Source: a virus. From it: a stretch of 64,000 bases of DNA. Below, one piece after another: positions 2 to 63,799 of this stretch. The translations under genes and the position numbers were made by a program. Each line of letters starts with the position of its first letter. The stretch's first letter is position 1. The notes beneath the pieces were generated by a model. The model worked only from the letters and a program-made list of their open reading frames with translations. It had not been told where the DNA came from and made no database searches. Location of the stretch: IMG/VR virus record IMGVR_UViG_3300035564_000075, positions 20,631 to 84,630 of that record. One strand, 5' to 3'.

Positions 2-3000
2 GCCCCATTACTTCAGGCAGAAGTAAGTGAAGGAGAAGAGACTAAGTTTGCCGGTTCTAGCTCTATGCAGATGCTTGCACAGAGAATTTGGACATCCTTC
101 GAGCGCGCCTCAGGACAAGTTGGTGCCACTCCACATTCTGTATTCTGGAGTTCCGTAGTAAGGGGAAACGAGGAAGTTCAGCCTGCTACTGCACTTGGTT
201 GGCATGCCAATGAGTTGGCACAGAACATCACACGTGGTCAGATACGCTTCAATGTCAATGCAATGGGCAAACCTCTATATCCTAGTGATGTAGAGCAAGT
301 CCAGAGAGACCTGATGTCTCAAATCAGGTATGGCAAGAATCAGATTATGGGTCCTGGCAACCAGCATGATCAGGGCGTTGGTGCAACCTTTGGTGAACTG
401 GGACGTGGTGGATATGTGCAGAAGGGCGGGTTCCTAATTCCTATCACACAGATAACCAGAACTACTGCAGAGGGAACTGAATGGTTCCTACCAGGAACTG
501 CAGAAAGTGCCGCAAAGTCTCTTCGTAGAATTGGTACATTGCCTCCAGAAGCACTTCCTTATACTAAGGGAGTGGGTCCAAATAACGTCTATCAGCAAAT
601 GCAAGCAACCCCTGCAACCGGACAGGGAGCAGGCTATGCGCTATTGAATATGATCCATCCTGGTGAAACTCAGGCACGTACTGCGCCTGTAGGCAACCTT
701 TGGGTATCTGGTGTTAGTGGTATCCCTGGTGGTGGACTAGAGCCTTCTAATGCATGGAGACCATCTGCATGGGGAAACACCACGGTTGAGGATCTCGATC
801 TTCCTATTAGGAATATTGGAGAGGCCACTGCTGAAAACTTCCCGTTCAAGTTCCGCAATGTAGTAGGAAAGAACTATGAACCTGGGGAAGGTTCTCCTAT
901 CGTTGGTACATACAATGTTGGCGGAAGTGAAAGGAACCTAACTCTACGTCCAGTAGAGAGTGCTCCACTATCTCCTTTGTCACAAGTTGTGCTTGTTCCA
1001 TCATGGAAGAATCCAGTAACTGGTGAATTCCTTGCAACCAAGAAGAGGGGTGCGGTAGCAGTATCTGATGCAGAGGTACTGGCTGTATCTCAAAGATCTG
1101 GTTTGCCAGCACAGAGAGTAGAGGGTTATACCTCTCTGGCGTTGTCTGTTACCAGTCTATACAGAACTGCACAGAAAACTGGTGGTACTATCAAGGCACT
1201 TGGCGTTCCTACTGGCATGGAACAGTATGTCCATGTAGGTGGACAGAAGGTACCGATCGATTTGGTTACTGGTGAACTGAAGTCATCTCTTGCCATCACG
1301 CAGGACTTTATGGCTTCTCGTTCTCGTTCTCAGGTACTGATGATGCTTGAGGATTACACCAAGAGAACCAGTGTTTCCGGTGGTCAAGAATTGGTAGAGT
1401 ACTACAAGAAAGAGTTTATGTCTGGTAAGAGACCTGCTACTATGGAGGAACTTGCCTCTCAACTTAGCATTTATGGCGAAGGACAGACTGAAGAGATCAG
1501 CAGACTGCAGAGATGGAAGTCATCTCTGACTGACATGAATACTGTCTTCAACATGAGCGAACTAAGCAAGGAAGAGTTGAGGATTCATGGTACAACCAAT
1601 GCATCTAATCTTTCTACCTACATAGACCAAAGAATTTCTACTGTTCGTGACTCTGCATTCTCTGGTAATGGTATGCAACTTGGTAGTGAGATCTTCAAGA
1701 ATACAGTTCTTGCAGAGAGTGATGCAGAGAGAGCTATGAAGCGCTATGGCGGCTTCTTGACACCAGAGGGTAACGAGATAGTCCATGGTGCCATGCATCC
1801 AGAGTCTATCAAGTGGGCAATCCAGGCTGCAATGGCAACTGGAATGACACAATCACAGGCAACAAAAGATGTCAAGAGAAGGTTCACGTTTCAAGATCCT
1901 TCTGGCAATCCTATAACACTTCAGCAAGCTATCAAGCTTGGCGAGAGTGGTAAACTTCCTATTGCCTTTGAGCATCCAGAAAGAAGAAGTGTAGTTCTGA
2001 TGGGACAGCCTCTTCCAAGAATGATGGAATGGGCTTCAAGGCAGACAAGAATTGGTTATGAGACTGGTACATATCTGTCTTCTATGTTTCCAAAATTCAT
2101 GTCAGGTATTGGTGCGAACACACGTGAATCTCACAAAATGAGAGGCATGGAAGGACCCGAGCGTGAAGTAGATGCTTATGTAAAGTGGTCACTCACTCTT
2201 GCAAAGCAGAATGAGCAGTATCCTGATATTACTAAGCTAGGAAAGGGAAGGGAATATACAGGAAAGGAAGAGACTGCTGCGGCTATGACCGTTGCAGAAG
2301 ACTTGCTTGTAAAATCTGCTTCAGATCTTGCCGAAACTAGAAACAATCCCGATGCAACTCCAGAGATGATCAATCAAATGGAGGATGCATATCAATATCG
2401 CAAGTCCAACTTCATGGAAATAAGACAGAAGCTGGATATGCCGCCTGAAATGCCGCTTATGCCAGAGAAGTATCAGGAAGTAAGCGAATCCAATATGAGT
2501 AATATTGGTTCCTGGCTATCTTCCCCAGAGGGACAGCAGGCAAGTGACGAAACCAAGCTAGACTTCATTCGCTCTACTATTGGAGAGGGAGAGGGACCCC
2601 TATTCTATGGTCATATCAAGGATGGCAAACTCGTTTCTGGCCCTGGACATCTAATTCCACGCCCTGAACTTATCAAGGAACTGCAGTACAACGACAAGAT
2701 CACTGGAGAGTCAATTGGTAACATCTCTGCTCTCTATACTGGAATCTTTTCTGGTAAGTCTGGACCCGAGAGACTATTCAACATCCTAAAGGATCGTCTA
2801 GGCGCAAAGAGCGAGGCTTACAAGAATGCATGGGGCTTCAAGACTCCATCTGGTTGGGGTGGTAGATTTGGAAACCTAGAGGCTCTTGCACCAGATGAAA
2901 TCTATCTGCCTCCAAGTGAGCGCAAGAGAATGCTTCGTCAGATGGGATTCAGGGGACAGAAGCTATCCAAGGCCATGCTGCAACTTGAGAAGATGGGTGA

Positions 3001-8383: not shown

Positions 8384-8832
8384 TGACAACATACAGTTAC
8401 TTCACTCTTACTACAATGAACCGTGGTGCATCTGGTCCAACTACTACCAAGAAATTCAGGGTAGTAGATGGTGGCTATGCTCCCTATCTTGAGAAAGCAG
8501 AGAACATGGATGTTACGGTAGAGGGCAAGCTGGATATTTCACAAGGTGCCGTTCATAAAGCCTACGATTTCATTGTCAAGGTTTATCAGGAAGATCCAAG
8601 TGGTGATTCCAGCTATGCAACCTATGCCGACTTAGAGACATTTTTCAGGTATAATAAACCATTGGGCTCTCCTTCAAACATGTTCTACATGACTGACCAC
8701 TATGGTGAACATAGCTATGTCAAGTTTGGTGGGCAATTGAAACAACAACCCGCTACTGTGTTTCTTGAAGGAAAGAATGCAATTTACTTCATTCAAATTT
8801 CTCTGAAAGTACTGGATCAGGTTGACATATGA
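8383..8832 (+). CDS. Putative distal tail (Dit-like) protein
   Basis: 149 aa, beta-rich, immediately after the TMP with overlapping TAATG stop/start; this is the canonical Dit position. Confidence 0.55.
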   Translation: MTTYSYFTLTTMNRGASGPTTTKKFRVVDGGYAPYLEKAENMDVTVEGKLDISQGAVHKAYDFIVKVYQEDPSGDSSYATYADLETFFRYNKPLGSPSNMFYMTDHYGEHSYVKFGGQLKQQPATVFLEGKNAIYFIQISLKVLDQVDI

Positions 8833-11800
8833 GAACAGTTTCTGATGCAATCACCAATGTAATCACCAAAGAAACGATGTACAAGGTGTTGCCTAGAATC
8901 ACTGCTTACAAATCACGTGTATATTTTGAGAATGCAGACCTAGACGACCACGCTCCTTCGTTGCCTTTACACTCTGGACAGATAGTTCTTCCAGAGGCTG
9001 TTACCCTATCTGCTACAGCCCACAAAGCCATAACAGTTGTTGTCAACACTGGAGTTATCAAGTTTCTGATTGAGGGAGACTCTTCTCCACTCACTCCACT
9101 TATTAGCAGTTCTCCGATCGTTGCAGATTACTTGAGCAGACCTGCATGGTATGGCAATAAGCTATATTACAGCAATGGCAGTGGCTGGCTTGAAACCACC
9201 ATTGATACAGATAAGGTAGTCGCAAGGAACACTGCATGCGCAAGTGCACCTTCTGTATGGTTGGATGGTGGTGTTGCCGCTGTACACATGGTAGGAGATG
9301 GACAGGCCATCTATGTGTATATCGAAGATGGAAGAGTCAACTTTGGCTATATTGATTCTAACAAGGATTACCACGATTGCCCAGGACACATCTTCGATCC
9401 AGTATGTGTTTTGGATGCAACCGTAGATGCTGGACTAATACATTATTCTACTGCCGCAAAAGTAGGTAACAAGATCTTTGCATACTTCAGCAGGTACGAT
9501 GGTGCCGTGGTGGGTGTTTACTATCAGACTGAAGACGGTATCAATGGAAGCTGGTCAGACTTCTTCGTTGCAATTCCAGAGGATCTAAGCGCATTCGACC
9601 TAACAAATGCTATAAGCGTCGATGGCAATGTTTTCCTAATAGGAAGATTCTATAGGAAGGATCAGTTTTCTGCCGATGCAGTATACACCTTGCTTCTACA
9701 ATCTCCAGATGGCATGACCTTCAATATGGATAGAAGGTCTCTTGTCACTACCATTGACGATCGCTTTGAAGTATTCTATGATAGCACTACCAAAGAAGTG
9801 GGATTCATTGCCAAGAACAAGTCATATCGTTCAACTGCTCCATTCTGGATGATAGGTGAAGATGCAGAAAGCATAACCATTGACATGGATTCTGTGTCTG
9901 GTTCTGTTACTTCTGGTTGGGCTGTGAAGCTGAAGTCTGGAGAAGAGGAATACTTTGCTAATGAATTGGTAGCAGAGGGAAACTTTGCCGATCTATACCT
10001 TGGTGTCGAGACAGGTGTTGCTGGAGATGAAGACGATCCTGGCTTTGAGTTTGTACACTATCACCAATGCGTTATAGAAAGTGTAGAGAAAGGTTGGGCC
10101 GATGGTGTTAGGGAGATGCAGATAAAATTACTACCTGCGGCTCTCTGGCAAACACAGTCTATGACACATCCCTTCTATATGGAATGGCAGGGCAAGCAGT
10201 ATTTGCAAGCCAAGATCCTGACCCTAGACAATTTGTATGCTGCCAGCGATAGTAATGGACAGCTATGGTCGCTATCACAGGACTTCTGGCAGGCAAGCAA
10301 TCCAAAGGCTTATGCGGTACAGACACATGCTGGACAACAAACAACTGATACATGGGCCGATGATCTCGTAGATTCTGCACTTGCTGTATCTTATCCCGAG
10401 TTCGGTTCTTCTGCAACCTACCAGATGAATATCTATGGCTGGTCTAGGGCTGGTATCCCTTCTTGCAACCCCAATGAGGCCGATTCTACCCCTACTTCCA
10501 CCCCTAATGATAAGTTCTATGGATTATTGCTGGTAGAAGACTTGGATGGTGTTGAACATACGATCGTAACAACGGATGGAGAACTTGCATCTAACCCAGG
10601 CTTCCCTATTGGAGACACATCACACACAAATCCTCCTCAGACATGGTTTGGTGCTGGCGTTAGGGCTGGTTCCTATCCTGTTTCTTATAACCTGAGCCGT
10701 TCAACGCATAGCATCTTGCCAGGATGGAAGATAAAGAAACTAGGAGTAAGGGTTGTCTCAGATCCTGCCAATGCCACGCACAGCACCACCTATTATCTTG
10801 AACGTGTGGATATGCCAAGGATTACCGTTGCATACTCTACAACGAGTAGTGTTGGTTTCGATGCGGTTACAGTTCCTAATACTGTATTCACCACGCAGAA
10901 AGGTGTTGCACAGATCCTGTTCTCTGTATCGCCTTACTCTACTTGGAACTTCGAGTTGAGTGGTAGGTTTACCTACATAGGACCATACTCTTATGTCGGC
11001 TTGATAGGACTGGCTACCGACAAAGACAACTTTGTAGTTGGATATGTGAGATCTGGCTATCTTGGACTTGCCAGAGTCAACCAAGGAATCCGCACTACCA
11101 TTCAGGAAGTGCCTCTTGCAGAACTGATAGAAGCAACCCATGTGGACGGAAGCAATCTCATCCACGATGGATTGACAGTTGATGTTCGCTTCTGGCACAA
11201 AGATGGCAACTTTGGTGTTGAGTACAAACTGCCAAGCACAGTTGATTGGCCTCTAAGGGGTAGTCAGCTTACTCATACATGGGAAACCGCAGATGGCGTT
11301 ATTGCCTATGAAGTTCCAGTTCCTACGCTAGAAGAAACTGGCATGAGTACAGATAGCACTGGTTCTTATGTCTACCATGTAGGAATCTATGCGATCATCG
11401 ATCCACCTAAGTTCCGTACAACCGGATTCCGTTCATCTGGTAGTATTGCACCTACGAAGCCATGCGATATAGATCCTTTCTCTGGATATTCTCAGCTATA
11501 CAGGTTTCCACACACAGGTAAGGTATCCTGCGATGATATAGTTTACAACTTTAGCTCAAAAGATGTCTCACTTTCGGGCGTAAGTGGATCATCTGGTGGC
11601 TATGGCAAGAATCCATACGACTACGATCCCGATACCCTAACAGGACAGTACCTGCCAAAGGCCAGGGGTCCTTATCTCATCTACAATATCCAGGACTGGG
11701 CTTGCTGCAACAAGGATCTTGTTGGTGGCTATCACTTTACTGGTACGCATGCTATTGAGTTCTCTGACTTCGCATGGCTATCCTATGATCCAGGATCTTA

Positions 11801-13234: not shown

Positions 13235-16200
13235 TGTCAAAACTTGCTGGAAAGATGGTGAAGTTCGGAAAGCAGAAGCAGATCCCCGCAAAGATTATCG
13301 ATGTGCTGGGACCGCTTTGTTCTGTCAAGCTATCTGGTAATGGAGAGAAGCTGACAGGGCTCTCCTATGTTGGACCTACACCAGTCAAGGGACAGAAAGT
13401 TATTGTAAACTACCAGACAGGCACTCCATTTGTGCAGACTGGTAGCACATATGCTGCTGCCGAATATTCAGCACCTGCTACACCATCACCTTCAACATAT
13501 GCAGATGGCACCGATCGTTCTGTCTTTGGTTCAGTACATCTTGATAAGAACGGTATGGGTGTATGGAATGATGACATTCCAACTGGACAGATCTCTACAG
13601 ATGGAGACTCCTTCTTTGGCTCTAACCTGGACTATGCAGACAACACATCTCTTTCTATCTTCACCAATGCACAGTCTTACAATGGTGAGTCAATGGGTGC
13701 TGGCGACCTCCTAGTAGGAAGCAACTCATCTGGTTTCGCTAACGTATTCTGGGATGCATCTGCAAAACAATTGAAGTTCCGTGGTGGCACTACGGTTCAG
13801 GCATATGTTGCCACCGATGGTACGATCGTAGCTGGTGGTGGAAACGTAGTATTGAGCACCACTGGTATCTCTGCATCTGCAGGAACTATTGGTGGCTGGA
13901 CACTTGGTGCTAACTCTCTCTCTGCAACTGGTGCAGTGATCAGTGCGGCAGTACCATCTATCGCTCTAGGTGGTGCAGGCTATCGTACTGGAACGGGATT
14001 CTGGGTAGGAAAGGATGTAGATTCTGTCTTCAAGTTCTTTATTGGAGATTCTGTCATTGCACATAAGCAGTATATGTACTTTGATGGAGTAAACCTTGTC
14101 ATTACTGGTACATACTCTGGAGAAATGGACATCTCTGGAGTTACTTCAAACACGTTTACTATCAACAGTGATCTTACTGATGCAACTGCTCAACTTATCT
14201 TTGGCAGAACAACAGGCGGAAACGCTTCTATCGGTTATGATGGAAATGTCCTTACATCCGATAAGACTATCAATATTGCTACCCTAAACGAGGGCGTTTA
14301 TTATACCCTACAATTGGGCTCAAGCGATGGGACCTATGTTGTTTCCTATGCTGATGATGCTCTCAATAATCTTTGGGTAGGTGGTAACGTAACAACCGTC
14401 TACGGAGATTCAGAACTAAGCCTTCAGAGTGCTGCACAGATCACTCTGTATGGTACATCGGTTTATGCTGGAGAGGGAACACCCTTCAACCTATGGGATG
14501 ATATTATCGTAGGTGATTATGTGTTTTTTGTGGATGTATCTCAGGGAAATGTTGGCTTCAACACTGAACCAGATCCACAGTTTGTAGTTGATATTGGCGG
14601 TAATGCAAGAGTGCAAGGATACCTATCTGCAAAGATGGCTATGACCGTCAAGGATGTCTTGATGATCTGCCACTTCGATGGTCATGAACCATATGCGATC
14701 GATTTCAGTGGAGATCCTGGTGGTCATCGTGGACAAGTTGCTACCGTAGTTGGTGGAGTGCAGTATCGCCCTGGCAAGTTCTACAAAGCTGTGCAATTGG
14801 CTGAAGCAACTACCAATCTGGTACCAAATCCTAACTTGGGAACTAATACAACTGGTTGGCAATGGCAGGTCAATGCACAGGGTAGTGGTTATGGTCGTAT
14901 CACCAATGAGCAGGTACTATATGGAAATACCTGCGGTAAGGCTGTTTGCTCTGGAACTGGTAGTCGTGCAGTAGGAACTAACGGATACTGGACAAGACCC
15001 GCTGGTGCAGACGTCACTATATCAATCTATGTAAAGCCTCTCACCCACCCAATTCTATATACTATGGTAGCCTTCTCTGATAACTGGGCACAAAATCAGG
15101 GAAGCTCACCTGTAACTGTACCTGTTGGTGAATGGACAAGACTTACTCTTTCTATTTCCAATGCTACGTTGAATACTTGGCATAATGGTGGACTGGATCT
15201 GACCTTCTTCCTGATCGACAATAATGATGGAGTAGCTGAAACATGGCTCTTTGGTGCCGCGCAGATGGAAGCTGGCATGCACGCTACTCCATATCAGCCT
15301 TCAGACCTACTTGAAACTAACCATCGTGATGCCAGTCATCTACAGTACTCTCCTGAAGGCAATATCAATCTGGATGCTGGTTCTTTCGGCATGACCTATT
15401 ACAACTTTGGATACCTAAATGACTATCCTTTGGGCTTGTATGTTGTTATCGATAGCAACAACTATATCGCACAGTATTTCAATGCAGTTTCTGGTGGAAC
15501 TCCCTATGTCTACGTCAATTCTGGAGGATCTGGAGTCGTTGCAGGAGAATATGCCCCTCTAAGTATTGGTTGGCACCAACTTATCGCTACTTGGAAAACT
15601 GGAGAGCTATTACTCTATATAGATGGAGAATTGGTTAGCAATGCAGTTTACACGCGTCCTGTTGGTACTCCATCTATCATGTACCTTGGTTATGGAAATG
15701 CCAATGTCTTAATAGACGACTTCTTTACCGTTGATCGTGTCATGGAACCCGATGAGATTCGTGCAGTATATGACAGCGATGCACCTATCTTTGCAGAAAC
15801 TTCTGTATCTGCTTGGCGTAGTTCTCGCCACTATGTCTGGATGGATGATGAGGGCCTTTGGGCTCAACATCCAGATGGATCAAATGTATTTGCCATTTCA
15901 ACCTCAGATGGTAAAAGCTACTCTGGCGGAACAATGGATTGGGGCGATCTACTAATTGGTACTGAAGTATCCGGTATATACTGGGACTACTCTGAAGCCA
16001 AAATACAGATGTGGGAAGCTCAGCTTTCGCTATCCGGAGAAACGGGTAGCATTTCAATCGGTGACGATCCTCCTGTGTCCTGTGTTGATGGTACAGGTTT
16101 GTGGATAGACAAAGATGGTATCTATGGTCTAAGCAAGACAGGTGCAGTAACAACCCTTGAAGCTAAATTTGACGCTATAACTGGCAAGATCATGGCTGGT

Positions 16201-17772: not shown

Positions 17773-18855
17773 ATGCTAATCAACGATCCCGTACTTGGAT
17801 TTGACGTATCATTGTGGACCCCCGTTATCAAGACGAACGAACTTGAGGACGGTGGTGTGAAAACCGTAGTAGTTGGCATCTATTCTGCCATTGATTCTAC
17901 CGGAAAGAAGGTTCTAGATCCTACCAGTAGAGCACAACTTACAGCAGTTGCTAAGAGTTCCATGGTTCTTCAGGCATATTATTGGGATGACATCACCCTT
18001 ACTGGTGAATCTCAGATGGCATGGCTACAATCTACCCTAAAGGCAGAAGGATTCCCTATTCGCTGGATGTGGTTGGATGATGAGCAGTGGTGGACAAACT
18101 GGGGTTCCTGGATGCTTGCAAAGCAGAACCAGATCCCATGGAGTTCTGTACCCTATGGCTCTTCTTTCAATATCTCCGGTCACTTTGGCAATACTGCAAG
18201 TATACTGTACAAGCTGACCAACCAGATGGGGGTGTATACCAATAATGGCTTTGTCTCATCTTGGGCCTCAGGCATGAATTCATGGCTATCTCTCTATCCA
18301 TCATGGATTCCATACTATGCACACCAGCCTAGTCAGGCAACGATCCTTACTTGGCAACAGGTAAAGGATCAATGGATGCCTACCTATGACCCTGGAAGGG
18401 CACCAGGACAGATCGCCAGCTTTGTCTATGGACACCAGTTCACTGGTGACGTTATGCTTCTCCCAGGTGCCTATGGCAAGTATGGCGCATACTCTCCAGC
18501 AGATGTGAATGTATTCTCTGCGGCATTCCTGAACAAGATCCGCAACAATCCAGCACTCTTTACTGGTGGTGTTACCCCTCCTCCAGTTGTAGTACCTCCA
18601 GTTGTAGTGACTCCAACCATTCCTTCGGTCAAGTACCATACCGTTTACCCAGTGAATGTGCGTGATTCCTTCTTGCAAAGCAGCACATTACTTGGTATAA
18701 TGGAGACAAATACTCATATTCTGGTTGACAAGGATGGTGGCACTGCACCCAATGTGTATCATCACTTCCTTGGTAAGAACCAGGACCCACAGGGAAGTGT
18801 CAAGTTCCCGAATGGTGGTTATGTGTATGCACAGTACTGCCATATAGATTCCTAA
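17773..18855 (+). CDS. Endolysin, GH25 muramidase-like with C-terminal SH3-like domain
   Basis: GFDVSLW start, WLDDEQ (DxE), GVYT, HQFTG and DVNVF motifs of GH25; Pro/Val linker, then VNVRDS..LLG SH3b-like domain. Confidence 0.75.
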   Translation: MLINDPVLGFDVSLWTPVIKTNELEDGGVKTVVVGIYSAIDSTGKKVLDPTSRAQLTAVAKSSMVLQAYYWDDITLTGESQMAWLQSTLKAEGFPIRWMWLDDEQWWTNWGSWMLAKQNQIPWSSVPYGSSFNISGHFGNTASILYKLTNQMGVYTNNGFVSSWASGMNSWLSLYPSWIPYYAHQPSQATILTWQQVKDQWMPTYDPGRAPGQIASFVYGHQFTGDVMLLPGAYGKYGAYSPADVNVFSAAFLNKIRNNPALFTGGVTPPPVVVPPVVVTPTIPSVKYHTVYPVNVRDSFLQSSTLLGIMETNTHILVDKDGGTAPNVYHHFLGKNQDPQGSVKFPNGGYVYAQYCHIDS

Positions 18856-18868
18856 TAGGAGAATACAA

Positions 18869-19320: not shown

Positions 19321-20430
19321 GTGCGTCTTCATATTATAGGTATGCCACATTCGATAACTACAGAGGCATTCCAGACCTGCGCTTTCACGCAAAAGGTCTG
19401 GAAGTTCTGTAAGATGATGCCCAAGTATGGTTGGGAAATCGTGCACTATGGGGTAGAGGGTGCAGATGTTCCTACTAGGAAAATAGACTTGGCGACTAGA
19501 GCAGAATGGGATGCGGCCTATGGAGATAGAGATCCCTCAGAATTCTATAATAAATCTCCGAACGATTTTGTGGTAGAATTCAATAGGCGCGCAGTAGAAA
19601 GTGTAATGCAGAACTCTGCAGAAGATGATGCAATCTTGTTCCCTTATGGACAACAGGCCATAGCGGAAAGACTGACCAACAGAAGGTTGCAGGTAGAGTC
19701 TGGAATAGGCTATGAGGCTGTATTTGCACGCTACAAGATATTTGAGAGTCGTGCATGGGCAAACAGGATCTATGGAGAACTTGGAGTAGAGGATGTACCT
19801 CACTTCGATGGTATAATACCTAACTACTTCGATCCAGAGAAGTTGCCGCTGGTCACAAAGAAGGATGACTACTTCCTATATATGGGGCGTTTGATACCGA
19901 GAAAGGGAGTGGCGATAGCAGCAGAAGTGTGCAGGATTCTCGGTAAAAAACTGGTTGTAGCTGGACAGGGCTCTTTGAGAACTGCACATATAACAGATGC
20001 TAACGTGGAGTTCCTAGGACCAGTAAATGATCCCATACAGAAAGCAGAACTTATAGGTCGTGCGGCAGCAGTATTCTGCCCAACGCAATACTTCGAACCT
20101 TTTGGTGGTGTTGCGGTTGAAGCTATGATGACTGGTACTCCGGTAATATCATCCGATCATGGTGCCTTTCCCGAGACAATCGTACAGGGAATTACCGGAT
20201 GGAGATGCCAAGTATATGATGATTACATTCAGGCCGCACAAAGATTAGATGTCTTCGACCCAATGAGAATTCATCGCTATGCAGTAAACAATTTCTCCAT
20301 GGATCGTATATCAAAACTATATGACCTTTACTTCAGGCGATTGCAACTTGCAAACCAACCTGATGGATGGCTCAAACCAAATGAAGCTAATACTGAAGAA
20401 GCATATTGGCATGAGACCATACCAGCTTAG
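19321..20430 (+). CDS. Glycosyltransferase, GT-B fold family 4
   Basis: YMGRLIPRKG and EPFGGVAVEAMMTGTPVI (ExF..E) GT4 motifs. Confidence 0.9.
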   Translation: MRLHIIGMPHSITTEAFQTCAFTQKVWKFCKMMPKYGWEIVHYGVEGADVPTRKIDLATRAEWDAAYGDRDPSEFYNKSPNDFVVEFNRRAVESVMQNSAEDDAILFPYGQQAIAERLTNRRLQVESGIGYEAVFARYKIFESRAWANRIYGELGVEDVPHFDGIIPNYFDPEKLPLVTKKDDYFLYMGRLIPRKGVAIAAEVCRILGKKLVVAGQGSLRTAHITDANVEFLGPVNDPIQKAELIGRAAAVFCPTQYFEPFGGVAVEAMMTGTPVISSDHGAFPETIVQGITGWRCQVYDDYIQAAQRLDVFDPMRIHRYAVNNFSMDRISKLYDLYFRRLQLANQPDGWLKPNEANTEEAYWHETIPA

Positions 20431-21352: not shown

Positions 21353-21393
21353 AAGAGTCTCCTAATAGGAATGTTGGAACATCGCGATACTAT

Positions 21394-30437: not shown

Positions 30438-30913
30438 AGGGTTCTCCTTTCTCTAAACTCTTCAAGAGTATAACGCAACTTCAACCCCCTGTCAATGTTT
30501 CTAAGCATAGACTTTATCGCTCTATCAGATGGACGTAGGTCACGCAGTATACCACCTTCATATGGTTCGGGATCTTCCTGCGTGAGCATGACATCGTAGC
30601 TCATCTGGTCTTTAGGAATGTGCCAACGATAGTGTCTCTTTCCTACTAGGAAAGTCATAGAGATTAGGTAGTTGGTGGAGTAGATTCCACTCCAGCCACA
30701 TCTATCACAACCTTCGCCATCGCAACTCCAGCACTCATTCGTCTGCACGTGCTCTACCACATACTTGGAGTAGCCATGCTGGTAGAGATAGCGCATTAGT
30801 TGCTCTTTCAGATCATAGACTTCTTCTTTATCAGGCAGGAAACCAGTACGAACTATGTTGTTCAGCACGAACATGTCTTGTGCCATTGAAGCAAGGGTGA
30901 GTGGTATTCTCAT
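30251..30913 (-). CDS. Protein with DnaJ-type zinc finger
   Basis: CWSCDGEGCDRCGWSG; 3' end overlaps the next ORF by about 190 nt. Confidence 0.55.
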   Translation of the reverse strand: MRIPLTLASMAQDMFVLNNIVRTGFLPDKEEVYDLKEQLMRYLYQHGYSKYVVEHVQTNECWSCDGEGCDRCGWSGIYSTNYLISMTFLVGKRHYRWHIPKDQMSYDVMLTQEDPEPYEGGILRDLRPSDRAIKSMLRNIDRGLKLRYTLEEFRERRTLWELALTIQMKSLLLGVSAHLGLSRNPTWRNKVLWPAVRSSLQDSAKLVQSLKNGIGWNRKQ

Positions 30914-33526: not shown

Positions 33527-33641
33527 TTTTCCTTCTTTCCTAATAGGAGTTTTCGATACTCTTCATCTTCTTGCATCCAGTGAGCCCAACGCCATTGAGT
33601 CTGTTCGGGAGACTCTTCATAACCATCATAGATGGGTTCCA

Positions 33642-34082: not shown

Positions 34083-34550
34083 CTACCTGTCAATGGACGC
34101 TGGAAGGTTAGTTCTTTCTTTTGCTTCATCAATGTCCTCCTGCGTAATAAGGATTTCGTCTGCCAGAAAACACGATTGTCCTTTACCATCTGGATGTTTT
34201 GGACGAACATGACCACGCACTTTACAATGGACAACATATCTATTCTCGGTAATCCTGAACATGCGACTGAAGAATGCTTCCGCATCTTCTCTGGTATATA
34301 GAAAGTGCCATCCTGATTGATACTCTTGTCCATGACTGCCATCAGTAACCATCTTTATGTCAGCCTTGTTCCATGTTCCTAATAGGAAACTGCGACTACC
34401 ATCAGTACCATGAAACAAGGATCTCACGTAGCCATACTTGATTTCTACAATCCTATAGCCATCACGTTCTGCATTCCATGGCATCATGGGCACAGTGAAA
34501 TGAGTCTTGTGAATCTTATTCTCATCCCAGGGTTGCGGTTTATCATCCAC
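34083..34550 (-). CDS. Hypothetical protein, distant member of the 41-43 kb paralog family
   Basis: GYRIV..SLF..GWHFL..AEAF..VVHCKV..LADEILI layout. Confidence 0.55.
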   Translation of the reverse strand: MDDKPQPWDENKIHKTHFTVPMMPWNAERDGYRIVEIKYGYVRSLFHGTDGSRSFLLGTWNKADIKMVTDGSHGQEYQSGWHFLYTREDAEAFFSRMFRITENRYVVHCKVRGHVRPKHPDGKGQSCFLADEILITQEDIDEAKERTNLPASIDR

Positions 34551-37960: not shown

Positions 37961-39046
37961 TTATATCTCCTTTACAAAAGGACTCTTCTTAGTGGCTTGT
38001 TCAATTTCTGCAATCATGGCTATCGGATCACTGATACTAAATTGCACCATGTTGGTCAAGGCACTTTGAATTGCACGTTCCAGAGTCTGTGGTACTATCA
38101 TTACAAAGATGTTACCACCTGGGATGGCAGTCATTTGCCCATCATAGATTGTAAACTCGGGTTGTTTTGTCAGAACAGTTCTAACTGTCTTGTCAGCAGG
38201 ATTGCTACTCCATGGCTTGACGGTTTCATCAGGAATTACTGCAAGGATAGCCGCAAAAGTGTCATTGAATTTCTTTTGTGCCTTCTCCTTCTCCCCTGGT
38301 ATCTGATCCTGAAGTTTATCAATTTGATCAACTAAGTCGTCATACTTCTCGGCTACAGTCTCGTAGTCGGGAGTGTCATGCATTCCCATGCCATCAAGTT
38401 TGTCCAGCTTGTCGTTCAGTCCGTCCCGTTCCACCCTTTTCTCCTTCAGTTGCTTGTCTAGACCAGTTGTAGTTGCAACCAGTTCATCAGCAGCATGGCG
38501 AATAAAGGGAATTGCGGCTCTTGTCCTAGACCAGTTATCTTCGATGGCAAGCACATCTTCAACACTCCATCCAACTGCTTTCATTTGGGTAAGCATCGGG
38601 AAGAAGTCTTCCAGCAAGAATTTGATGTCATTGAGTTCCCCGCCTCTATCACGAATTCCAGCATCTACCAGAAATTCGATGACAGTCTCATATTCACCAA
38701 AATGATAGGCACCAGTCTGTTTGACTTTCCACGCTAGAAACGCAAAAGCACGATCGAAGGCTTCACTCTTCTTTCTAGCATGAATCACGGCAGACATCAG
38801 AGACTTTGCCATCTCACGTGTGCGAACAAGCATTTCTGAAGGATCTGGAATTGGACGACCAGCAATTTCTGCTTCCTTTACGGCTTTCAGGTGCTCACTC
38901 CAGAATACAGCAGAGTACAAGTCTTTTGCAATATCTTTCTCCATGCCAGGATAGTCCTCGGTCATCCAGCGTGGTACATCCTTGATAGGCGGCTCTGGAA
39001 TCTCCCACTGCTCCATATCTGCGGTCATTGTGCTTAGATCAAACAT
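37961..39046 (-). CDS. Hypothetical coiled-coil protein
   Basis: 361-aa helical ORF downstream of the ParB-like gene, AAGGAG RBS. Confidence 0.65.
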   Translation of the reverse strand: MFDLSTMTADMEQWEIPEPPIKDVPRWMTEDYPGMEKDIAKDLYSAVFWSEHLKAVKEAEIAGRPIPDPSEMLVRTREMAKSLMSAVIHARKKSEAFDRAFAFLAWKVKQTGAYHFGEYETVIEFLVDAGIRDRGGELNDIKFLLEDFFPMLTQMKAVGWSVEDVLAIEDNWSRTRAAIPFIRHAADELVATTTGLDKQLKEKRVERDGLNDKLDKLDGMGMHDTPDYETVAEKYDDLVDQIDKLQDQIPGEKEKAQKKFNDTFAAILAVIPDETVKPWSSNPADKTVRTVLTKQPEFTIYDGQMTAIPGGNIFVMIVPQTLERAIQSALTNMVQFSISDPIAMIAEIEQATKKSPFVKEI

Positions 39047-42390: not shown

Positions 42391-42807
42391 CTACCTCATC
42401 ATAGTTATTCTAGCTTCCATTGTGTCCATTCTTTTGTAAAGTTGTGTGATAATCACCACTTTAGCAAGATAGGTGCCATAGGGTAGAATATTCTTTGGCG
42501 TTCTATCATATCCAATTGAAATTCCATCATCAGCAACATAAATAGCTCTTGCATAAGATGGAATAAATCTACACGTATAGATTTCTCCAATCTTATCACC
42601 ATGACTTGTTGACTTTAATTCTCCTAGTAGGAAGTCAAATGCTCTCTTATAGTTGCCAAACACACATATAGGGCCGCAATTCTTCTGTGGAAGAGTGGGT
42701 TCCCACAACTTATACTCAAGCATTCCCTGAGGTCTGTCTTCTATAAAAGACACCCTCTTATCTCCTTTGACAAGAACAACCTTGTAGCCAAACTTGTAAT
42801 CGTTCAT
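42391..42807 (-). CDS. Paralog family member D
   Basis: GYKVV..CGPICVF..CRFIPS..LPYGTYLAK. Confidence 0.75.
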   Translation of the reverse strand: MNDYKFGYKVVLVKGDKRVSFIEDRPQGMLEYKLWEPTLPQKNCGPICVFGNYKRAFDFLLGELKSTSHGDKIGEIYTCRFIPSYARAIYVADDGISIGYDRTPKNILPYGTYLAKVVIITQLYKRMDTMEARITMMR

Positions 42808-43385: not shown

Positions 43386-45025
43386 TACAAGTTACCCAGT
43401 CTCCCGCATGATGTTCATCCTCCACATTGCCACACTTAGGACATTCCCAAGAACAACAAACACTATACAACATTACAATCCTTTTGCTCTTCTTAGGAAC
43501 TATAGGAGCAGGAGGAGGAGCTTCAGTTGTGCTACCCTCATTAGAAGCAGTCATATTAGCATCCTTTCATGGCATCTTGCAACACTTTTACCACGTGATC
43601 TTCGCCTTCGTCTTCTTCATCCCAACGACCGTCCAGAGTAGTGACAGCTTCATCCATTGCTTCTTTATATTTTCTTAGTTTGCTAACAAGAGTCCAAACT
43701 GTGTTTGCTATCATGTTTTTATGGGTATGATTCATGTTTACAAGATCCAGTCCAAGATACTCAATTACATCACCAGTATCACTAAATTTATGATCAGTAA
43801 TGTCATTATTGTCATCGAATATGTTCATTGTGCTCTCCTCTTAGGCTCTGGCAAAGATTCTCGCTTGATAGCAGGAACCTCTTCTGGAGTCTTCCTAGTA
43901 GGAATTGTATACTGAATTCGCACAGGATCTTCCTTAGGCAATTCAATTGTTTCCTTACGTTTGCTTCTTCTCATTTTGTCCTATGGCACCACTCACTATG
44001 CATACCATCCAGCCATCCACAATACTCACACTTGGATAGTTCTTTAGAACGGTATCCTACCAACACACCTGGGCCACAACCAAGATTAGCACTGGCATCA
44101 ACCCAAGGACCAAACTTGCTATTGATCATGTCTGCAATACCACGCGCACGATTCTTGAATCTTGTCTCGATAGAGAAAGTTCCACTGGATAGAACGTAAT
44201 CAGGCAATCGAATTTTGTGCCATGAGTAAGTATTTACATAGTCAACAATCTCTTTGGGAGTAGGTTTCTTCATACATCACCCACTACAGACATCAGTTTC
44301 TATCTCAAGAGTATCAGTCCCTGAATTGTACAGAATGTCTTCAACTTCTCCTTCTGCACCATAGCAACCAATCACAACTATTTCTATATCTCCATATTCC
44401 TCTAGCATATGTCGCAATCTTTTTGCCATCTCTGATAATGTCATAGTTTTTCTCCTTTCAACTCTATGATTTGTTCTTGTGCACGATCGTAGAGATCTTT
44501 CATCATATCATACTTTCGCTGATAGGAACTCAATCTTGCCAGAGCAATATTCAAGGCATCTCTTATATTGCCCTTGCCAACCTTGACAATCCAATCATCA
44601 ATCTCCTGTGATACGGTTTTTGATGTCATCTGGAATACCTACCCATGGAGTTTTCTTTGCCACTGGGAAACGTATAAAGACGTCCTCGTAGCAAGCAGTG
44701 CAACGGGATGAACGTGTTGTGCGCTCAACTTTATTGACCGTACCGCAAATAGGACAGGTGAAGTCCCACAATTCAGGATCATCAGAGGGATTGTTTATGC
44801 TGGCGGATTCCATAGCCACTCCTTATGGTTGCTGGATGAACTGGAATTTCAAGCCAATATCTATCTTGAAGTGTTCTTATATCGAAAACCTGTCTCAAAC
44901 CACGCCACCAGATATAAACTTTATATCCATACCAGTAGCGTGCTTTTACCCAACCACCATCCCATTCCAGTAAAAAGTCATGCTCCTTATCTGGTTCTTG
45001 TTCTGAAATAAGTTTCCATTCCATA

Positions 45026-45769: not shown

Positions 45770-46252
45770 ATGGACACAGAACTAATCAAAATAAGTCTCA
45801 TGCAAGTATACTACACTATGGCTATTGAAGGAATGTCCAAGAGAGAAGCCTGCGAAAAGCTAGGTATCAATTGGTCAACCTTCATGTATTGGCAATCAGA
45901 GCACCCTGAAGTATACAGAGAATTCTCCGATCGACAAACAGAACTTCTGAAGATAAATGCTGTACAACTGCAAACAGCACATCAGGAAGTTCTAAATAAA
46001 CTAGTCGCACAAGCCAGTGTAGTTACCAATCTATCTGACATTCTCGCCTTGGAGTCTAGATTGCGTGTACTATCCGCTGAAGCTAAACTAAACTCTGGCG
46101 AGGATAGTGCACAGCAAAAGGCTGCTGCCAACTTCTTGACTGGTATACACCAAGTTCCTGGCATATCCAAGATCACTCGAACAACCGAAACAGTTGAATT
46201 TGGTGCTGACGAGAATACCATAGATGGTGAAGTGAAAGAACTTGACAAGTAA
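45770..46252 (+). CDS. HTH protein, terminase small subunit-like
   Basis: GMSKREACEKLGINWSTFMYW HTH, then coiled coil and TIDGEV tail typical of TerS. Confidence 0.55.
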   Translation: MDTELIKISLMQVYYTMAIEGMSKREACEKLGINWSTFMYWQSEHPEVYREFSDRQTELLKINAVQLQTAHQEVLNKLVAQASVVTNLSDILALESRLRVLSAEAKLNSGEDSAQQKAAANFLTGIHQVPGISKITRTTETVEFGADENTIDGEVKELDK

Positions 46253-47701: not shown

Positions 47702-47722
47702 AGAGTTCCTTTCTAAAACACA

Positions 47723-47755
47723 ACTCCCCCAATTCCTATTAGGAAAAGGGGGAGT
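47723..47755 (-). terminator. Hairpin/terminator whose upper stem is the dispersed palindrome
   Basis: ACTCCCCC-AA-TTCCTA-T-TAGGAA-AA-GGGGGAGT, followed by TGTGTTTT on the - strand. Confidence 0.65.
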
Positions 47756-47778
47756 CGGTTTATTTATGAAACGATAGT

Positions 47779-54285: not shown

Positions 54286-54480
54286 CTATGAGTGAATGAG
54301 TATTGAGAGAGGACCGACAAAATAAAAGTTCAGGTTCCGCATGGTATTGTCATGTTCGAAAGTCCACCAGAAGGGCTGGATGTCAATATCGATATTCTTG
54401 TGTTGTATTCGCAACAACACAAATTTCCACCACCTGAAATCAGGGTGTTTGACAGGATATGGATTGAATGTTATCTTCAT
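54286..54480 (-). CDS. Small protein, PFxWxF..GP family
   Basis: MKITFNPY..QPFWWTF..VGPL. Confidence 0.55.
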   Translation of the reverse strand: MKITFNPYPVKHPDFRWWKFVLLRIQHKNIDIDIQPFWWTFEHDNTMRNLNFYFVGPLSILIHS

Positions 54481-54799
54481 TCTATTTTCCTATTAGGAAT
54501 TTCTGAAGCCGCTTGTACCAAAAGTGGCGTTTTTGGACCATCGGGCGTTTCCTTTTGGACAAAATCTTCATCTTTCATGGTTGCGGGATCTTGAACCTTA
54601 ACCCCCTCAGGTACAAGGGGGTCAGGTTCCGATGGAATAGCAGAGATGGTTGCATAGAGTTCATCCCAGTCTTTGATGATCTGTGACTTGGGACTGAAAG
54701 GCACAACCAGCCTATTGATACCACCAATGGAAGTAATCTGGTAGTTCAAATGCTTGGCCTTTAGTAAAGCCTCAACATCTCTACGCTGATAGGTATGCA

Positions 54800-56090: not shown

Positions 56091-57835
56091 TTATCTCCTT
56101 CCTATTCTGCCTAATGCGGATAGGCCATCGAAAATAACAAAGATGGGCCACAAAACAACAACCATGAAACAAACAATCATTCTGGTGGCTCTGAAATTGT
56201 ACTTGGCATTCCTGTTTATGAACAGGTACAACAATGCAATCAAGATACCAATTCCAACATACACCAGAATCAACGCAGTTGCAAGATCCATATTGTCTCC
56301 AATTGGCAGTATACTATAGAACCATGAATCTGTAAAGGTTATTGTGACAAGACCCAAGCTATTACCAGAAGAACGATTATCATCTAATGCCTCACAGCAT
56401 GAATATAAGCACAATTATCCATAATGGGATAGCAAGCCACCAATATAAGCTATTCACCATTATAGCAAATAGTGAAGCTGTAAGTGCTGCCACAAAAACA
56501 CTGCCAAACAGCTTGAACTCAAGTCTGTTGTTCATATTATCTGTTATCCCAGTAGATTACCCATGGACCGATGCAAAGCGTGTGATCAAACATCCCTTTG
56601 CCAAGATCTGTAAATGCCCATGATAATGGATAGAAAGCAACGCCTGCTTTGTTTCCCAGATAGCTAAACAAGGGACCCCTGTTAGCTACAGCTTTTGGAG
56701 ACCATTCAAAAGACTTGCTTGGACGACCATAACATCCCATAGTATCCTCCTATATGCAGAACAGATTGAGTGTCATGCCAATTACCATGACTGCCAAGGC
56801 TACAATCCCAAGTATGATCATGTAGAAGGTAAGAACCTTCAATATCCCTCTTTTGGTCATCAGGTTGGTATAGATGTTGAGTAGCACAAATATAACCGCA
56901 AACAATACAGCAAAGAAGTGATTTGCGTCCACATTATTCTCCCTAGCAATGCTGAATTCGTAACTTGCTATTACACAAACTAAAGGGCGGAGGCGGGGTT
57001 GGATAAGTACCACCATTACTGATTCGACTGGGTATATTCACCACTACCGCAAACACAAATACCATCAGAAGATTCAACAGTTTGTTTTTCATATTATCTC
57101 TCCTAATACCAGACAATTGGCCCAAAGTGATGCACTATATTAGTCTGACCGAACTCCCAATTGAAAGGGGTAATTCGGAAACCGGAGAACTGATATGTAT
57201 TATGTATGCCAAACAACACAAATATTCCAACTCTCCATAACAATCTAAACAGTTCCAATTCTGTATACTTTCCCAGTCTGATTCGCATGTCTCTCCTTAT
57301 AACCAGAATGATAGGATTGCAATCCCCACACACACAATTCCTATTAGGATCATCAGGTAATAACGTAGTTTTTTGTTCATATTATTTCAGTTAGTGCTGA
57401 TATACCCATGCATAGGAACATCACAAATGCAAGATCTATCCAATCAGTGATGATTCCACCCAGTGCAGCACAAACCATCAACACAAAGAATATAGCTATA
57501 AACGCACGCGATAGTACTCTCTTTAGCAGTTCCATGGTTTATCTCCTATTTATCAAAACCATCTCTCTCAACTCTACGATCAGCACGATTGAACAACCAC
57601 CAATACCCCAACATGATTATGATAGGAGCAAAACAACAACAATCAGTCAGTATCTTCGCTGAGAGTGACATGGCTAGAACTTTCCATTGTAGCAAATGCG
57701 TGGAGATGTCTCATTACAGCAGTACATCATGCCATGATACCTACGACAGTAAAGACCACTGTTAGTAGGATTGCCACCTATCCCACCTATGATGAATATA
57801 CTCAATACAGCAACCATGAACAGTCTAAGTTTCAT
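56091..57835 (-). other. Cluster of about 11 tiny membrane/secreted ORFs
   Basis: ORFs starting at 56291, 56535, 56740, 56932, 57092, 57288, 57380, 57535, 57671 and 57835; most have a GGAG-type RBS and a hydrophobic helix. Confidence 0.65.
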
Positions 57836-58158: not shown

Positions 58159-58755
58159 GTTCCTTATCTCCCTAGTGCAATAAATACCTCAATACCATCC
58201 CTAATACTATATAAGGAACCATCCTACATATAGACCTGAACGTAACAATCAATACTCTTCTCATATCTATCCTCATACTACATCTCCTTATAGGAATATA
58301 TACTTTCCTATCCACTATACCCTATAACAATGGCTAGGGGTGTATATGGGACTACTAGCTCTTTCGCTTCACTCTCCAGTACAGTGCTATGATGCCCAGA
58401 TCCACTTGTAATGGCATACCGAAGAATGGTAGTTTGGCAGCAGTACCATCTGCAAACTTGATTGCGCTTGTGATCCACTCTTCTGGGTCCTTACGGATGC
58501 GTATTACGAAGCGCTTGAAGGCAAACAGCCAACTGAAGGGCAGATTCTGGAATACCATGCGAATTCTCCTAATAGGAATTATACACCACGTGCACAATCT
58601 TGACAATGGCTACAGTACCCTTGCGACGCATAGCTGCATCCAATGCCTGTTCAGCAGTAACATGCGGCTTGATGTGCAGCAAGCGTATGATCCAGAAGGG
58701 AATGACCAGATAGCGATCGGGGATCAGTTTCGGTGCCATAGCATGCTCCTATAAA

Positions 58756-60979: not shown

Positions 60980-61275
60980 TTCCTTTCTTCACAAACGATG
61001 AGACCACGGCATCCAGTCCAGCTTCATGGAGACGCTGGCGGTATTGTGGGTCAATCCGATGTGCACGCTGCTTGATCTCATGCTGTCGCTTCGTGCGCTT
61101 CTCGGCTTGTAGGAGGCTGGAATCTACCTCCACGTCTTCGTTCAGCAACCACTTCATACCACGCATTTCGTACTCCTTTCTTCTATGCATGTGAACTCAT
61201 GCATATGCCTGCTCATCAGGCTACCCCCAACCTGATGAGCAAGCGCTATGCAATTGTTCTTCCTAATAGGAAGAG

Positions 61276-61500
61276 TTACCAGGAACCGTATTCGTCAGAA
61301 GCCTGCATCCGACGCTCAGTAGCGGTCATCTGCTGCTTCCGAGAACCAACCTGCCGTTGATTCGGACCCTCGGGCAGTTGGTTGGGCTCGCCATCCATGA
61401 AGGACATCACTGCACCAGTGAAGTCAACGAAGATGGATTTCTTGCCTGCATTGATGGTGTTCTTGGAACCGTTCTTGGGGGTATTCTTATGACCAAACAT
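61276..61500 (-). CDS. Hypothetical protein
   Basis: Start moved to MFGHKN after GAAAGGAG. Confidence 0.55.
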   Translation of the reverse strand: MFGHKNTPKNGSKNTINAGKKSIFVDFTGAVMSFMDGEPNQLPEGPNQRQVGSRKQQMTATERRMQASDEYGSW

Positions 61501-62404
61501 GATATGCTCCTTTCTAAGAGCAACTAACTGAATGATGCGCAGGATTGCGCCTATATATAAGAGCCTAAATGCAAAAGGCCCTTTGCGCCAGTCTTTTACT
61601 TGGCGTGTAAACCCTGGAAGGTTTTTTTCACAATCCAGAACATATGCCAATATGCTCTGAATATCTTGCCCCTTAGTCTGGATGCCCATTGCCAGGGGTT
61701 AGGCATTAGATCATCCCATGTGTACAGATATGTATCTGCATGGCCCACATGAGATATAGATACAGTTGCATATGGTGTATCCATATAGCCACCACTATAG
61801 CCTGATACAATATGCAAATGCCCAATTGTAAGATCATAGTCATAGCTATCGCCTTGATTTCTTTCAGTATAGGTGCCAAAGCGAGAGATAACTTTAATTA
61901 TAGGGCGGATCAGGCCACAGAGCCAATCTATGATACGGTTATGCAGAATAATAAACTTGATGTTCATAGCAATCACCGTACATAGTAATCGAATGTGTGC
62001 TGCCACACCACAATACGCCTGTGCAAGATCCAGGTGATGATAGCCATGTGCGTGTGCCAGCCATCCTTCCCAAAGCAGCGTGATGCATGCAGAGCACCAC
62101 GGTTGTATGCATGCACAATGCCATCGCCATTGTCACGCATAGGGAAGACGTACTTGCGGAAGATCAAGATCATCAGGTACAACATGTTACACATCCTATT
62201 CTCCTGCGTGCAGGAATTAGCTGCATCTGAGCAGGCGTTAGCATGCATGACTATTGCCCCCATGCATGCATGCTATGCCAAATCAGATACTACCTAACTG
62301 CCATAGTGATTAGGCTAGGCAAGGCCATACATGCAAGCATGCCTACTGCTATCACTACTGCGAATACGATCCAACCTACAGGAGAGCACAGTCTCTTATT
62401 CATG

Positions 62405-63221: not shown

Positions 63222-63225
63222 GAGA

Positions 63226-63423: not shown

Positions 63424-63799
63424 AGAACAAAAATCCTGGAGAGGATTAGTCTCCAGGATCAAGGTCAAGCATGGTAAGATTTATGTAGATGCATACCTGT
63501 GGGCTTCACAGGATGCGCTGCAAGAGAACGTGTTGACAGACAACGAGTATCTGGTAGCATGCTATCTGCCAATTCCTATTAGGAATTGTGACGAAGGTAC
63601 TTTTGGTGAATTCAATTTTTGTCTTGATGAATTGGGATTCAAAACTGTTGCGCATGAACTTACTCATTTTATCATAGACCTAAAGAGAATGCAATGCTTC
63701 GAGGATGAGGATACTGCAGAATTCGTAGGAGAATTGGCAGAGAGATTGACTCAGGAATTTCTTTCCAAGACCTTGACAGATCCAGAAGAATATGTATAA
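63410..63799 (+). CDS. Small zincin-like metallopeptidase (HExxH)
   Basis: TVAHELTH followed by DEDTAE. Confidence 0.6.
   Translation: MIEYREQKSWRGLVSRIKVKHGKIYVDAYLWASQDALQENVLTDNEYLVACYLPIPIRNCDEGTFGEFNFCLDELGFKTVAHELTHFIIDLKRMQCFEDEDTAEFVGELAERLTQEFLSKTLTDPEEYV

Follow-up and report, generated by a model that had tools for sequence, protein, structure and literature searches.

The sequence considered here (the window) is a stretch of 64,000 nucleotides, bases 20631-84630 of the complete virus record IMGVR_UViG_3300035564_000075, which is 84,630 bp long, carries 123-bp terminal repeats and has a G+C content of 45%. The element in question is a short palindrome with the core word TCCTANTAGGA (TCCTA-N-TAGGA), which recurs throughout this genome, both within and between genes. 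The virus, referred to below as G000, is a tailed phage, as seen from family matches to a large terminase subunit and a portal protein; most of its proteins have no match in family searches. A plus-strand block of virion genes converges on a long minus-strand block that encodes a DnaB-like helicase and a DnaC-like loader. Nine longer related records, G005-G013, were fetched whole, which gives ten genomes in all. The open reading frame (ORF) at the tape-measure position of G000 encodes 2,879 amino acids (aa), and homologues of at least 2,793 aa are found in 9/9 relatives. ORFs were called crudely, and the reality of some small ones is doubtful, which applies to all counts of copies inside ORFs. 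The copies in the window and the genes that are discussed as possible readers of the palindrome are listed in Table 1.

Table 1. Palindrome copies (coordinates of the strandless core) and candidate reader genes in the window
Feature	Position	Strand	Centre	Context
Copy	802..812		T	Inside tape-measure ORF 2-8383 (+); reads LPIRN
Copy	9634..9644		A	Inside ORF 8829-12266 (+); reads FLIGR
Copy	13709..13719		G	Inside ORF 13234-17334 (+); reads LLVGS
Copy	18850..18860		A	Gene junction; TAGGAG half 8 nt before ATG at 18869
Copy	19470..19480		C	Inside glycosyltransferase ORF 19321-20430 (+); reads VPTRK
Copy	21360..21370		A	7 nt before start (21352) of ORF 20972-21352 (-)
Copy	30641..30651		C	Inside ORF 30251-30913 (-); reads FLVGK
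Copy	33538..33548		A	11 nt before start (33526) of ORF 32483-33526 (-)
Copy	34377..34387		A	Inside ORF 34083-34550 (-); reads FLLGT
Copy	42622..42632		G	Inside ORF 42391-42807 (-); reads FLLGE
Copy	43893..43903		G	64 nt upstream of ORF 43556-43828 (-); within doubtful plus-strand ORF
Copy	47734..47744		T	Intergenic; tip of G+C-rich hairpin 47719-47759
Copy	54488..54498		T	Final codons of ORF 54477-54800 (-); 7 nt before start of ORF 54286-54480 (-)
Copy	57339..57349		T	5 nt before start (57333) of ORF 57103-57333 (-)
Copy	58567..58577		A	Among small doubtful ORFs
Copy	61261..61271		A	17 bp with extension (61258-61274); just past stop of ORF 61276-61689 (-)
Copy	63574..63584		T	19 bp with extension (63570-63588); doubtful ORF near right end of genome
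ParB/Noc-family protein, 260 aa	39235..40017	-		GRRRL arginine patch and helix-turn-helix (HTH)
361-aa protein	37961..39046	-		Adjoins ParB gene; in 7/7 relatives holding the region, including two without ParB
HTH protein, small-terminase-subunit-like	45770..46252	+		In 9/10 genomes
MarR/TrmB-like winged-helix protein, 89 aa	26722..26991	-		Clear in 4/10 genomes

The core word is found in 17 exact copies in the window and in 22 in the complete genome. All of the copies that an initial annotation of this DNA had listed are recovered (the core positions in Table 1 are the 13-bp starts given there plus 1), as are the 17- and 19-bp extended palindromes, and the rarity by chance that was claimed at about 0.06 copies is borne out by 100 dinucleotide shuffles of the window, which contain the word 0.03 times on average and at most once. 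In 12 second-order Markov surrogates of G000 the top palindrome reaches a count of 2-4, compared to the 22 observed; the word is by far the most repeated one, and the next odd palindrome has 3 copies. The whole genome contains 22 exact and 9 one-mismatch copies, while independent bases predict 0.09 and 2.8, respectively. With one mismatch allowed, the window yields just 6 further copies, against an expected total of 1.9 matches. Ten of the 17 window copies are perfect over the full 13-mer TTCCTANTAGGAA. All four bases are used at the centre, as had been noted (A 10, T 6, C 3 and G 3 genome-wide), T or C is found at position -1 and A or G at position +1 in 21/22 copies each, and the flank-extended form YTCCTANTAGGAR describes 20/22; beyond one base per side the copies share no flanking similarity.

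Lone half-sites occur at background level (108 and 114 copies), and a pair of half-sites at any other spacing is not found in the genome. The background frequency of lone half-sites led to the rejection of a Chi-type signal made up of the half-site only. When viral contigs were scanned with the 15-mer ATTCCTANTAGGAAT, at least 113 stretches were returned, nearly all of them single chance matches; of three records with two copies in the locus retrieved, none has more than these 2 over its full length, and the motif is therefore not widespread outside the G000 lineage. The genome-wide iterated palindrome is thus confirmed as real.

Thirteen copies lie fully within called ORFs. When codons were shuffled synonymously, i.e., with the protein sequence and the per-gene codon usage kept fixed, such copies averaged 0.25 and never exceeded 2 in 200 shuffles, so that the enrichment persists under the codon-aware null that had been put forward as a possible refutation. 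The same null is beaten in G005, G006, G008 and G009. Within genes the palindrome is read in two frames per strand, spelling [F/L]-L-x-G or x-P-x-R-x, because the third frame places TAG or TAA in frame; the peptides named earlier (LPIRN, FLIGR, LLVGS, VPTRK, FLVGK and FLLGT) are all correct. An example is the terminase motif YFLLGDPGTG, in which G000 and its close relative L007 spell FLLG as a site that differs at the free centre base only, while G006 and G013 encode the same FLLG residues with other codons and have no site there. The TTA codon used in the terminase site accounts for 5% of the G000 leucine codons. These observations support the earlier proposal, drawn from the varied frames and strands, that the target of selection is the DNA and not the protein sequence.

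The copies are concentrated where their cost is low. Nine of 22 lie at least partly outside the called ORFs, though about 8% of the genome is non-coding, and 7/22 end 5-11 nt ahead of a called start codon, at a point where TAGGA(G) also serves as ribosome-binding site. Of the overlaps with ribosome-binding sites that had been claimed, those at 18850 and 21360 hold, and that at 58567 could not be shown. On the sense strand, the 12 in-ORF copies have A at the centre three times, T four times, G three times and C twice, and there is no orientation with transcription. The left 6.2 kb of the genome, outside the window, harbors 29 tRNA genes (genome 86-6155), among them those reading CTA, TTA, ATA, AGG and GGA, which are codons used by the in-gene palindromes. 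This region also contains one palindrome copy, 21 bp long with its extension, at genome 3691 in the gap that separates tRNA-Arg from tRNA-Leu.

The evenness of the spacing was assessed in six genomes by comparing the coefficient of variation (CV) of the gaps with that in 5,000 random placements. In four of the six the spacing is more even than random: the CV is 0.69 in G000 (share of random placements as even, 0.050), 0.68 in G009 (0.028), 0.38 in G006 (<0.001) and 0.40 in G007 (0.001). The function of the sites thus seems to need coverage of the whole genome. Individual positions are less stable. Over the 4.6 kb in common with L007 (portal 83% identical to that of G000, DNA 74-79%), one site is kept in place and G000 has one site that L007 lacks. 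In the other direction, one site of L007 corresponds to a copy with one mismatch in G000, and a further near-copy in L007 is unmatched there. Similarly, one of six sites in the locus L123 maps onto a G005 site, most flanks being too diverged for alignment. From this turnover, selection seems to keep the number and spread of the sites more than their exact positions. Between its terminase and portal genes, L007 also has a Cys/His-rich ORF of 134 aa (L007:1296-1700) that is absent from G000 and has the appearance of a homing-endonuclease insertion.

The relatives were collected on the basis of the portal protein, for which 214 homologues were found at E <= 0.001 in a large protein collection; an alignment of 29 of these, scanned over viral contigs, yielded 79 loci. 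In metagenome contigs a portal alignment gave 300 pattern matches and none confirmed. One freshwater-metagenome run contained, as contigs, 0.06 of the words, and none was listed among RNA runs. Among 50,697 phage records there were no relatives by megablast of 20 kb or by tblastn of the portal or of the ParB-like protein.

When the motif is sought in these relatives, as the initial annotation proposed, nine of the ten genomes are found to carry an iterated palindrome of their own, which exceeds all surrogates of the same genome (surrogate maxima over the ten genomes, 2-6). Besides the 22 copies of TCCTA-N-TAGGA in G000, these are TCCAA-S-TTGGA in G005 (9 copies) and G007 (13 copies), CCTCCAA-S-TTGGAGG in G008 (25-27 copies), TTCCAATTGGAA in G006 (13 copies), TTCGYA-N-TRCGAA in G009 (28-33 copies), CTCCAC-N2/3-GTGGAG in G010 (10 copies), TTCAGA-N5-TCTGAA in G011 (8 copies) and CTCAGA-N3/4-TCTGAG in G013 (9 copies). 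G012 has no palindrome above its surrogates; it has an asymmetric 10-mer, TTTGATCGAA, which occurs 8 times in both orientations and is one base from a perfect palindrome. YTC begins every half-site (TTCCTA, YTCCAA, CCTCCAA, TTCGYA, CTCCAC, TTCAGA and CTCAGA), while the inner letters and the spacer, of 0 to 5 bases, vary by lineage. The centre is C or G in 47/47 copies of G005, G007 and G008. Among shorter related loci on the portal tree (4-21 kb each), 18/77 carry one palindrome at least 3 times, a count for which no null was computed. New in these data are the diversification of the site from one lineage to the next within a large uncultured phage family, the tendency of the copies to even spacing and, as described below, a link to ParB that is not obligatory. 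In G010 one half-site occurs at two spacings, CTCCAC-TA-GTGGAG four times and CTCCAC-NNN-GTGGAG six times, and in G013 spacers of 3 and 4 likewise coexist; this mixture could reflect either a flexible dimer or a pair of readers with a half-site in common.

A candidate reader of the palindrome is encoded in the window by the gene that the initial annotation had called ParB-like. A profile of this ORF and four orthologues (alignment A5) matches solved ParB, Spo0J and Noc chains at E values of 3e-18 to 1e-13 over query positions 34-203, i.e., the arginine-patch N-domain and the HTH domain. PHROG ParB-like families match the protein at E 3e-9, and Pfam ParB_N alone is below the cut-off. On this evidence the call can be upheld, and the product is assigned to the ParB/Noc family as a genuine member. 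ParB-family members bind compact palindromes as dimers. No match to AAA_31, the one ParA-type ATPase family searched, was found in the genome, and there is no tyrosine integrase. The gene is present in 6/10 genomes (G000, G005, G006, G010, G011 and, partial at a contig end, G013). The records of G007 and G012, in which it was not detected, are partial. Scanning viral contigs with the ParB alignment retrieved only G005 and G006 again. In the presumed recognition helix the proteins of G005 and G006, two genomes with the half-site TCCAA in common, are almost the same, and those of G000, G010 and G011 differ. In G000, G005, G006, G010 and G011 the ParB-like gene, a tiny ORF and the gene for the 361-aa protein form a conserved neighbourhood (37961-40017 in G000).

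We regard it as an even bet that the copies are docking sites for a sequence-specific dimeric protein that acts genome-wide, for which the ParB/Noc-type protein would be the best, as yet unproven, candidate in G000. Such a protein would bind double-stranded DNA as a dimer, with one subunit per half-site (YTCCTA). Over the full length of the genome, selection would maintain about one site per 3-4 kb in the places of least cost, such as at ribosome-binding sites, where AGGA(G) is already half a site, at gene junctions and at peptides [F/L]-L-x-G or P-x-R that can be spelled synonymously as a site. Since coverage appears to matter and promoter position does not, the bound protein would most likely load at the sites and act at a distance by spreading, sliding or bridging, as KorB does from OB on plasmid RK2, and may in this way organize, silence or mark the phage genome.

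Several observations weigh against this explanation, at least in its simplest form. Across the relatives, the sites and the ParB gene do not travel together. The two genomes with most copies of all, G008 and G009, are complete with terminal repeats and have no ParB detectable with Pfam ParB_N, with our own full-length profile (called ORFs and six frames), with a profile of the DNA-binding half, or with PHROG 1033 and alignment A5. Among the records rated at least 90% complete, just 3/5 have the gene, and the ParB-less G008 has the same core as the ParB-bearing G005. The agreement between helix and motif involves 5 sequences and is inseparable from shared ancestry. None of the five genomes with a whole ParB gene has a palindrome copy in or beside it. 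The tblastn search of the 50,697 phage records returned no homologue of the protein, which leaves no characterized relative to lean on. In addition, the gaps are not significantly even in G008 (CV 0.79, share 0.17) or in G005 (CV 0.66, share 0.21). ParB as the general reader is thus not upheld and the link of the palindromes to ParB is not obligatory; because the gene is missing from the site-rich G008 and G009, a second reader, a host factor or a replacement of the reader must be allowed for.

Among the alternatives are those in which the copies would not be docking sites on double-stranded DNA. The element could be a hairpin of RNA or single-stranded DNA, i.e., a translational operator, a priming signal or a promoter of an N4-like virion RNA polymerase. 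The seven copies over ribosome-binding sites, the variable spacers (2/3 and 3/4) in relatives, which would be tolerable in a loop, and the copies with extended arms, which fold at -6 to -8 kcal/mol, are in line with such a role. However, the bare core folds at -2.4 kcal/mol, which 116/200 shuffles match, and the only copies that fold well are those with extended arms or the one on the 47719-47759 stem. More than half of the copies are inside genes, on either strand and with an unbiased centre base on the sense strand, and the motifs of G009 and G011 are unlike a ribosome-binding site. The variant half-site TTCGTA affects a single half of about 11 sites in G009 and never both halves of a site, and it can point in either direction with respect to the gene. 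Such uncompensated single-half variants fit a dimer reading half-sites on double-stranded DNA, as the initial annotation had proposed, and do not fit selection for base pairing. The RNA hairpin was therefore rejected as a general explanation, and this whole class of structures is highly improbable. The 47719-47759 element is a 10-bp G+C-rich stem on the minus strand, around a palindrome copy between two minus-strand ORFs (-26.3 kcal/mol, z -6.6); it is not a textbook terminator because no U-run follows. That the copies are a functionless by-product of a repair or mutation bias, or a tiny mobile sequence, is hardly credible: sites do turn over between close relatives (G000 and L007), but the copies are exact and recruit rare codons, they lack the shared flanks noted above, their spacing is more even than random, and candidate host genomes show no such bias. 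It is very unlikely that the sites are substrates of an enzyme such as a DNA methyltransferase, another modifying enzyme or a site-specific nickase. The ratio of 22 exact to 9 near copies does resemble enzyme specificity, and relatives encode DNA methyltransferases, of the C5 type in G006, G008 and G011 and of the N6/N4 type in G009; the latter frame, of 397 aa with one in-frame TGA, is found at G009:70438-71388. In G000, by contrast, the two DNA methyltransferase families searched, PF00145 and PF01555, have no match, for which reason such an enzyme was rejected as the reader there. The sole methyltransferase-like ORF (genome 6369-7088) matches families of the general small-molecule type (Methyltransf_23/11); it lies beside a glycosyltransferase-like gene and has a site over its ribosome-binding site. 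A Cys/His-rich protein of 149 aa (26045-26494) reads as HNH-nuclease-like by eye but has no Pfam match even at E 0.1 and no PDB match; it is found in G000, G005, G006, G008 and G009, where the palindrome spacers are 0 or 1, and is absent from G010-G013. Usual modification sites are much shorter than 11-15 specified bases, and a role as substrate leaves the accumulation and the spacing of the sites unexplained.

The remaining alternatives retain a binding protein and differ in its identity. A host protein, e.g., one that organizes the nucleoid, controls division or acts as a global regulator, might read the sites, each phage copying the site of its own host. This would explain why G008, with a portal 27% identical to that of G000, has the same core as G005 and G007, with which it shares no unusually similar protein (the matches are structural genes or antisense frames of them), and why the motif classes are only partly clade-bound on the portal tree. 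On the other side, the G+C content of 53% in G008 versus 48% in G005 and G007 suggests different hosts. Related phage contigs (L239-L244) are binned with metagenome-assembled genomes (MAGs) of Leptolinea (two), Anaerolineae, Magnetococcales (two contigs) and Geobacteraceae, which hints weakly at freshwater or sediment bacteria, perhaps Anaerolineae, as hosts of the phage family. The motif had also been suggested for counting in candidate hosts; in five such MAGs, which may not include the host of G000, the motif class occurs 7, 9, 1, 5 and 4 times, i.e., less often than a reversed control (18, 21, 4, 14 and 21), and there is therefore no sign of a host-wide word there. A host protein with few sites would escape such counts; overall, a host reader is quite unlikely. 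A further phage protein as the reader, either present in all relatives or so small and fast-evolving that it escapes homology searches, with ParB as an accessory, is possible, and we hold it tentatively. The presence of a YTC half-site motif in every genome suggests one homologous reader, and the ParB-less genomes hold most copies. Only three non-structural genes are that widespread, those for an SSB-like protein (a label given on inspection of its sequence only), for the 361-aa protein beside ParB and for the small-terminase-like HTH protein. The motif is found inside or touching the gene of the last of these in 4/9 genomes (G005, G008, G009 and G011). Its recognition helix, however, differs among G005, G006 and G008, which have a common half-site, and is near-identical in G010 and G013, which do not; its nearest Atlas matches are small terminase families (scores 0.91-0.93, leads only). 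The 361-aa protein has no detectable DNA-binding family or fold (no PDB sequence match and nothing usable from Pfam or Atlas), and its most divergent copy is that of G008. Both G008 and G009 keep this gene without ParB, and in G008 a nuclease-like ORF, so labelled by reading only, is located two genes upstream. The MarR/TrmB-like winged-helix protein was rejected as the reader since the same helix is kept across genomes with different motifs; for neither this protein nor the small-terminase-like protein, both of which had been named as candidates, does the recognition helix follow the motif. Pfam returned nothing for the small ORFs at the site-dense right end, and no family was found for the 347-aa and 149-aa proteins in common with G008 and G009. 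Finally, the palindromes may constitute a fast-evolving address code of the whole family, with a reader other than ParB, that could mark the phage DNA as self, evenly along its length. Such a code might, for example, shield the genome from a nuclease turned on host or rival DNA, or restrict loading of the replication, recombination or packaging machinery to the phage genome. It is suggested by the fact that ParB-less relatives carry most copies and that very distant lineages share one core, and we consider it unlikely.

The ten related genomes, some with and some without a ParB gene and with versions of the site that differ in half-site letters, spacer and symmetry, constitute a natural experiment, and the reader should therefore be findable by covariation or by DNA-affinity capture. 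The same variation makes the purpose of an even genome-wide coverage testable. If the orphan ParB, i.e., the one encoded without a recognized ParA, reads the sites, the KorB-style action at a distance would extend from plasmids to lytic-looking phages; if the reader is another protein, an unknown way of marking a viral genome would be in play. Sites of this kind are also strong markers of lineage when phage contigs from metagenomes are to be sorted.

Of the known systems, the stoperators to which the G000 sites had been likened are, in Cluster A phages, asymmetric, oriented with transcription and found in temperate phages, according to the account consulted (PMC4351075). There, too, many short sites are scattered inside and between phage genes and are bound by a phage protein. 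The comparison fails because the G000 sites are symmetric and unoriented with transcription; the genome also lacks a tyrosine integrase (no repressor search was made). With the parS and Noc systems the likeness is that the candidate reader belongs to the same family across the N-domain and HTH. In the stretch aligned to the DNA-contacting helix its residues are not those of the solved proteins, and no similarity of the site to parS is claimed. From a ParABS system the phage differs in that AAA_31 is unmatched and the sites are genome-wide, in a number and scatter far beyond a centromere.

Plasmid RK2 has a dozen OB sites, some of them inside genes. KorB of RK2 is a CTP-dependent clamp of the ParB family; its loading sites are copies of an odd 13-bp palindrome with G/C at the centre, and from these it reaches targets, among them promoters, at distances of up to 1.5 kb (PMC11790492). 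The phage resembles this system in having an odd palindrome of 11-15 bp, about one site per few kb, no ParA and a ParB/Noc gene with an arginine patch. Many copies are scattered over the replicon (22 in 84.6 kb, 13 inside called ORFs), and the centre is always G/C in G005, G007 and G008. The differences are that G000 is a phage and not a plasmid, that no KorA-like partner was identified and that ParB is missing in two site-rich relatives. Clamping with CTP and sliding are features of KorB that the phage protein may share. The earlier KorB/Noc-like idea thus stands for the ParB-family gene and the dispersed palindromes and does not stand for their co-occurrence across relatives.

The closest parallel in arrangement is offered by Cluster O mycobacteriophages (Corndog and relatives), for which the sections consulted describe a 17-bp dyad repeat in more than 30 copies in a genome of about 70 kb (PMC4351075). 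According to the same sections, 14/34 copies are between genes and the rest within, near gene starts as well as deep inside genes; the repeat is not tied to promoters, is unoriented with transcription and is identical in all five phages (PMC4351075). These sections report no sign of lysogeny and note a protein with a ParB-like domain; the authors predict a dimeric DNA-binding protein with a role other than transcription initiation, and in 2015 left the function open (PMC4351075). In a search of titles and abstracts no paper was found that gives such phage repeats a function, and the database searches described above (tblastn of portal and ParB, megablast of 20 kb, 50,697 phage records) gave no match that would point to a shared ancestry with the Cluster O phages. 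The parallel gives the phenomenon a name but no explanation. In both cases tens of dyad-symmetric copies run through a tailed-phage genome, inside and between genes and unoriented, and the Cluster O motif TGTTCGGNNNCCGAACA has the outer GTTCG..CGAAC at the same spacing as the G009 motif. By this analogy, the G000 palindrome appears to be a further instance of the Cluster O-type phenomenon, with the difference that the repeat is constant among the five Cluster O phages, while here its sequence and spacing change by lineage.

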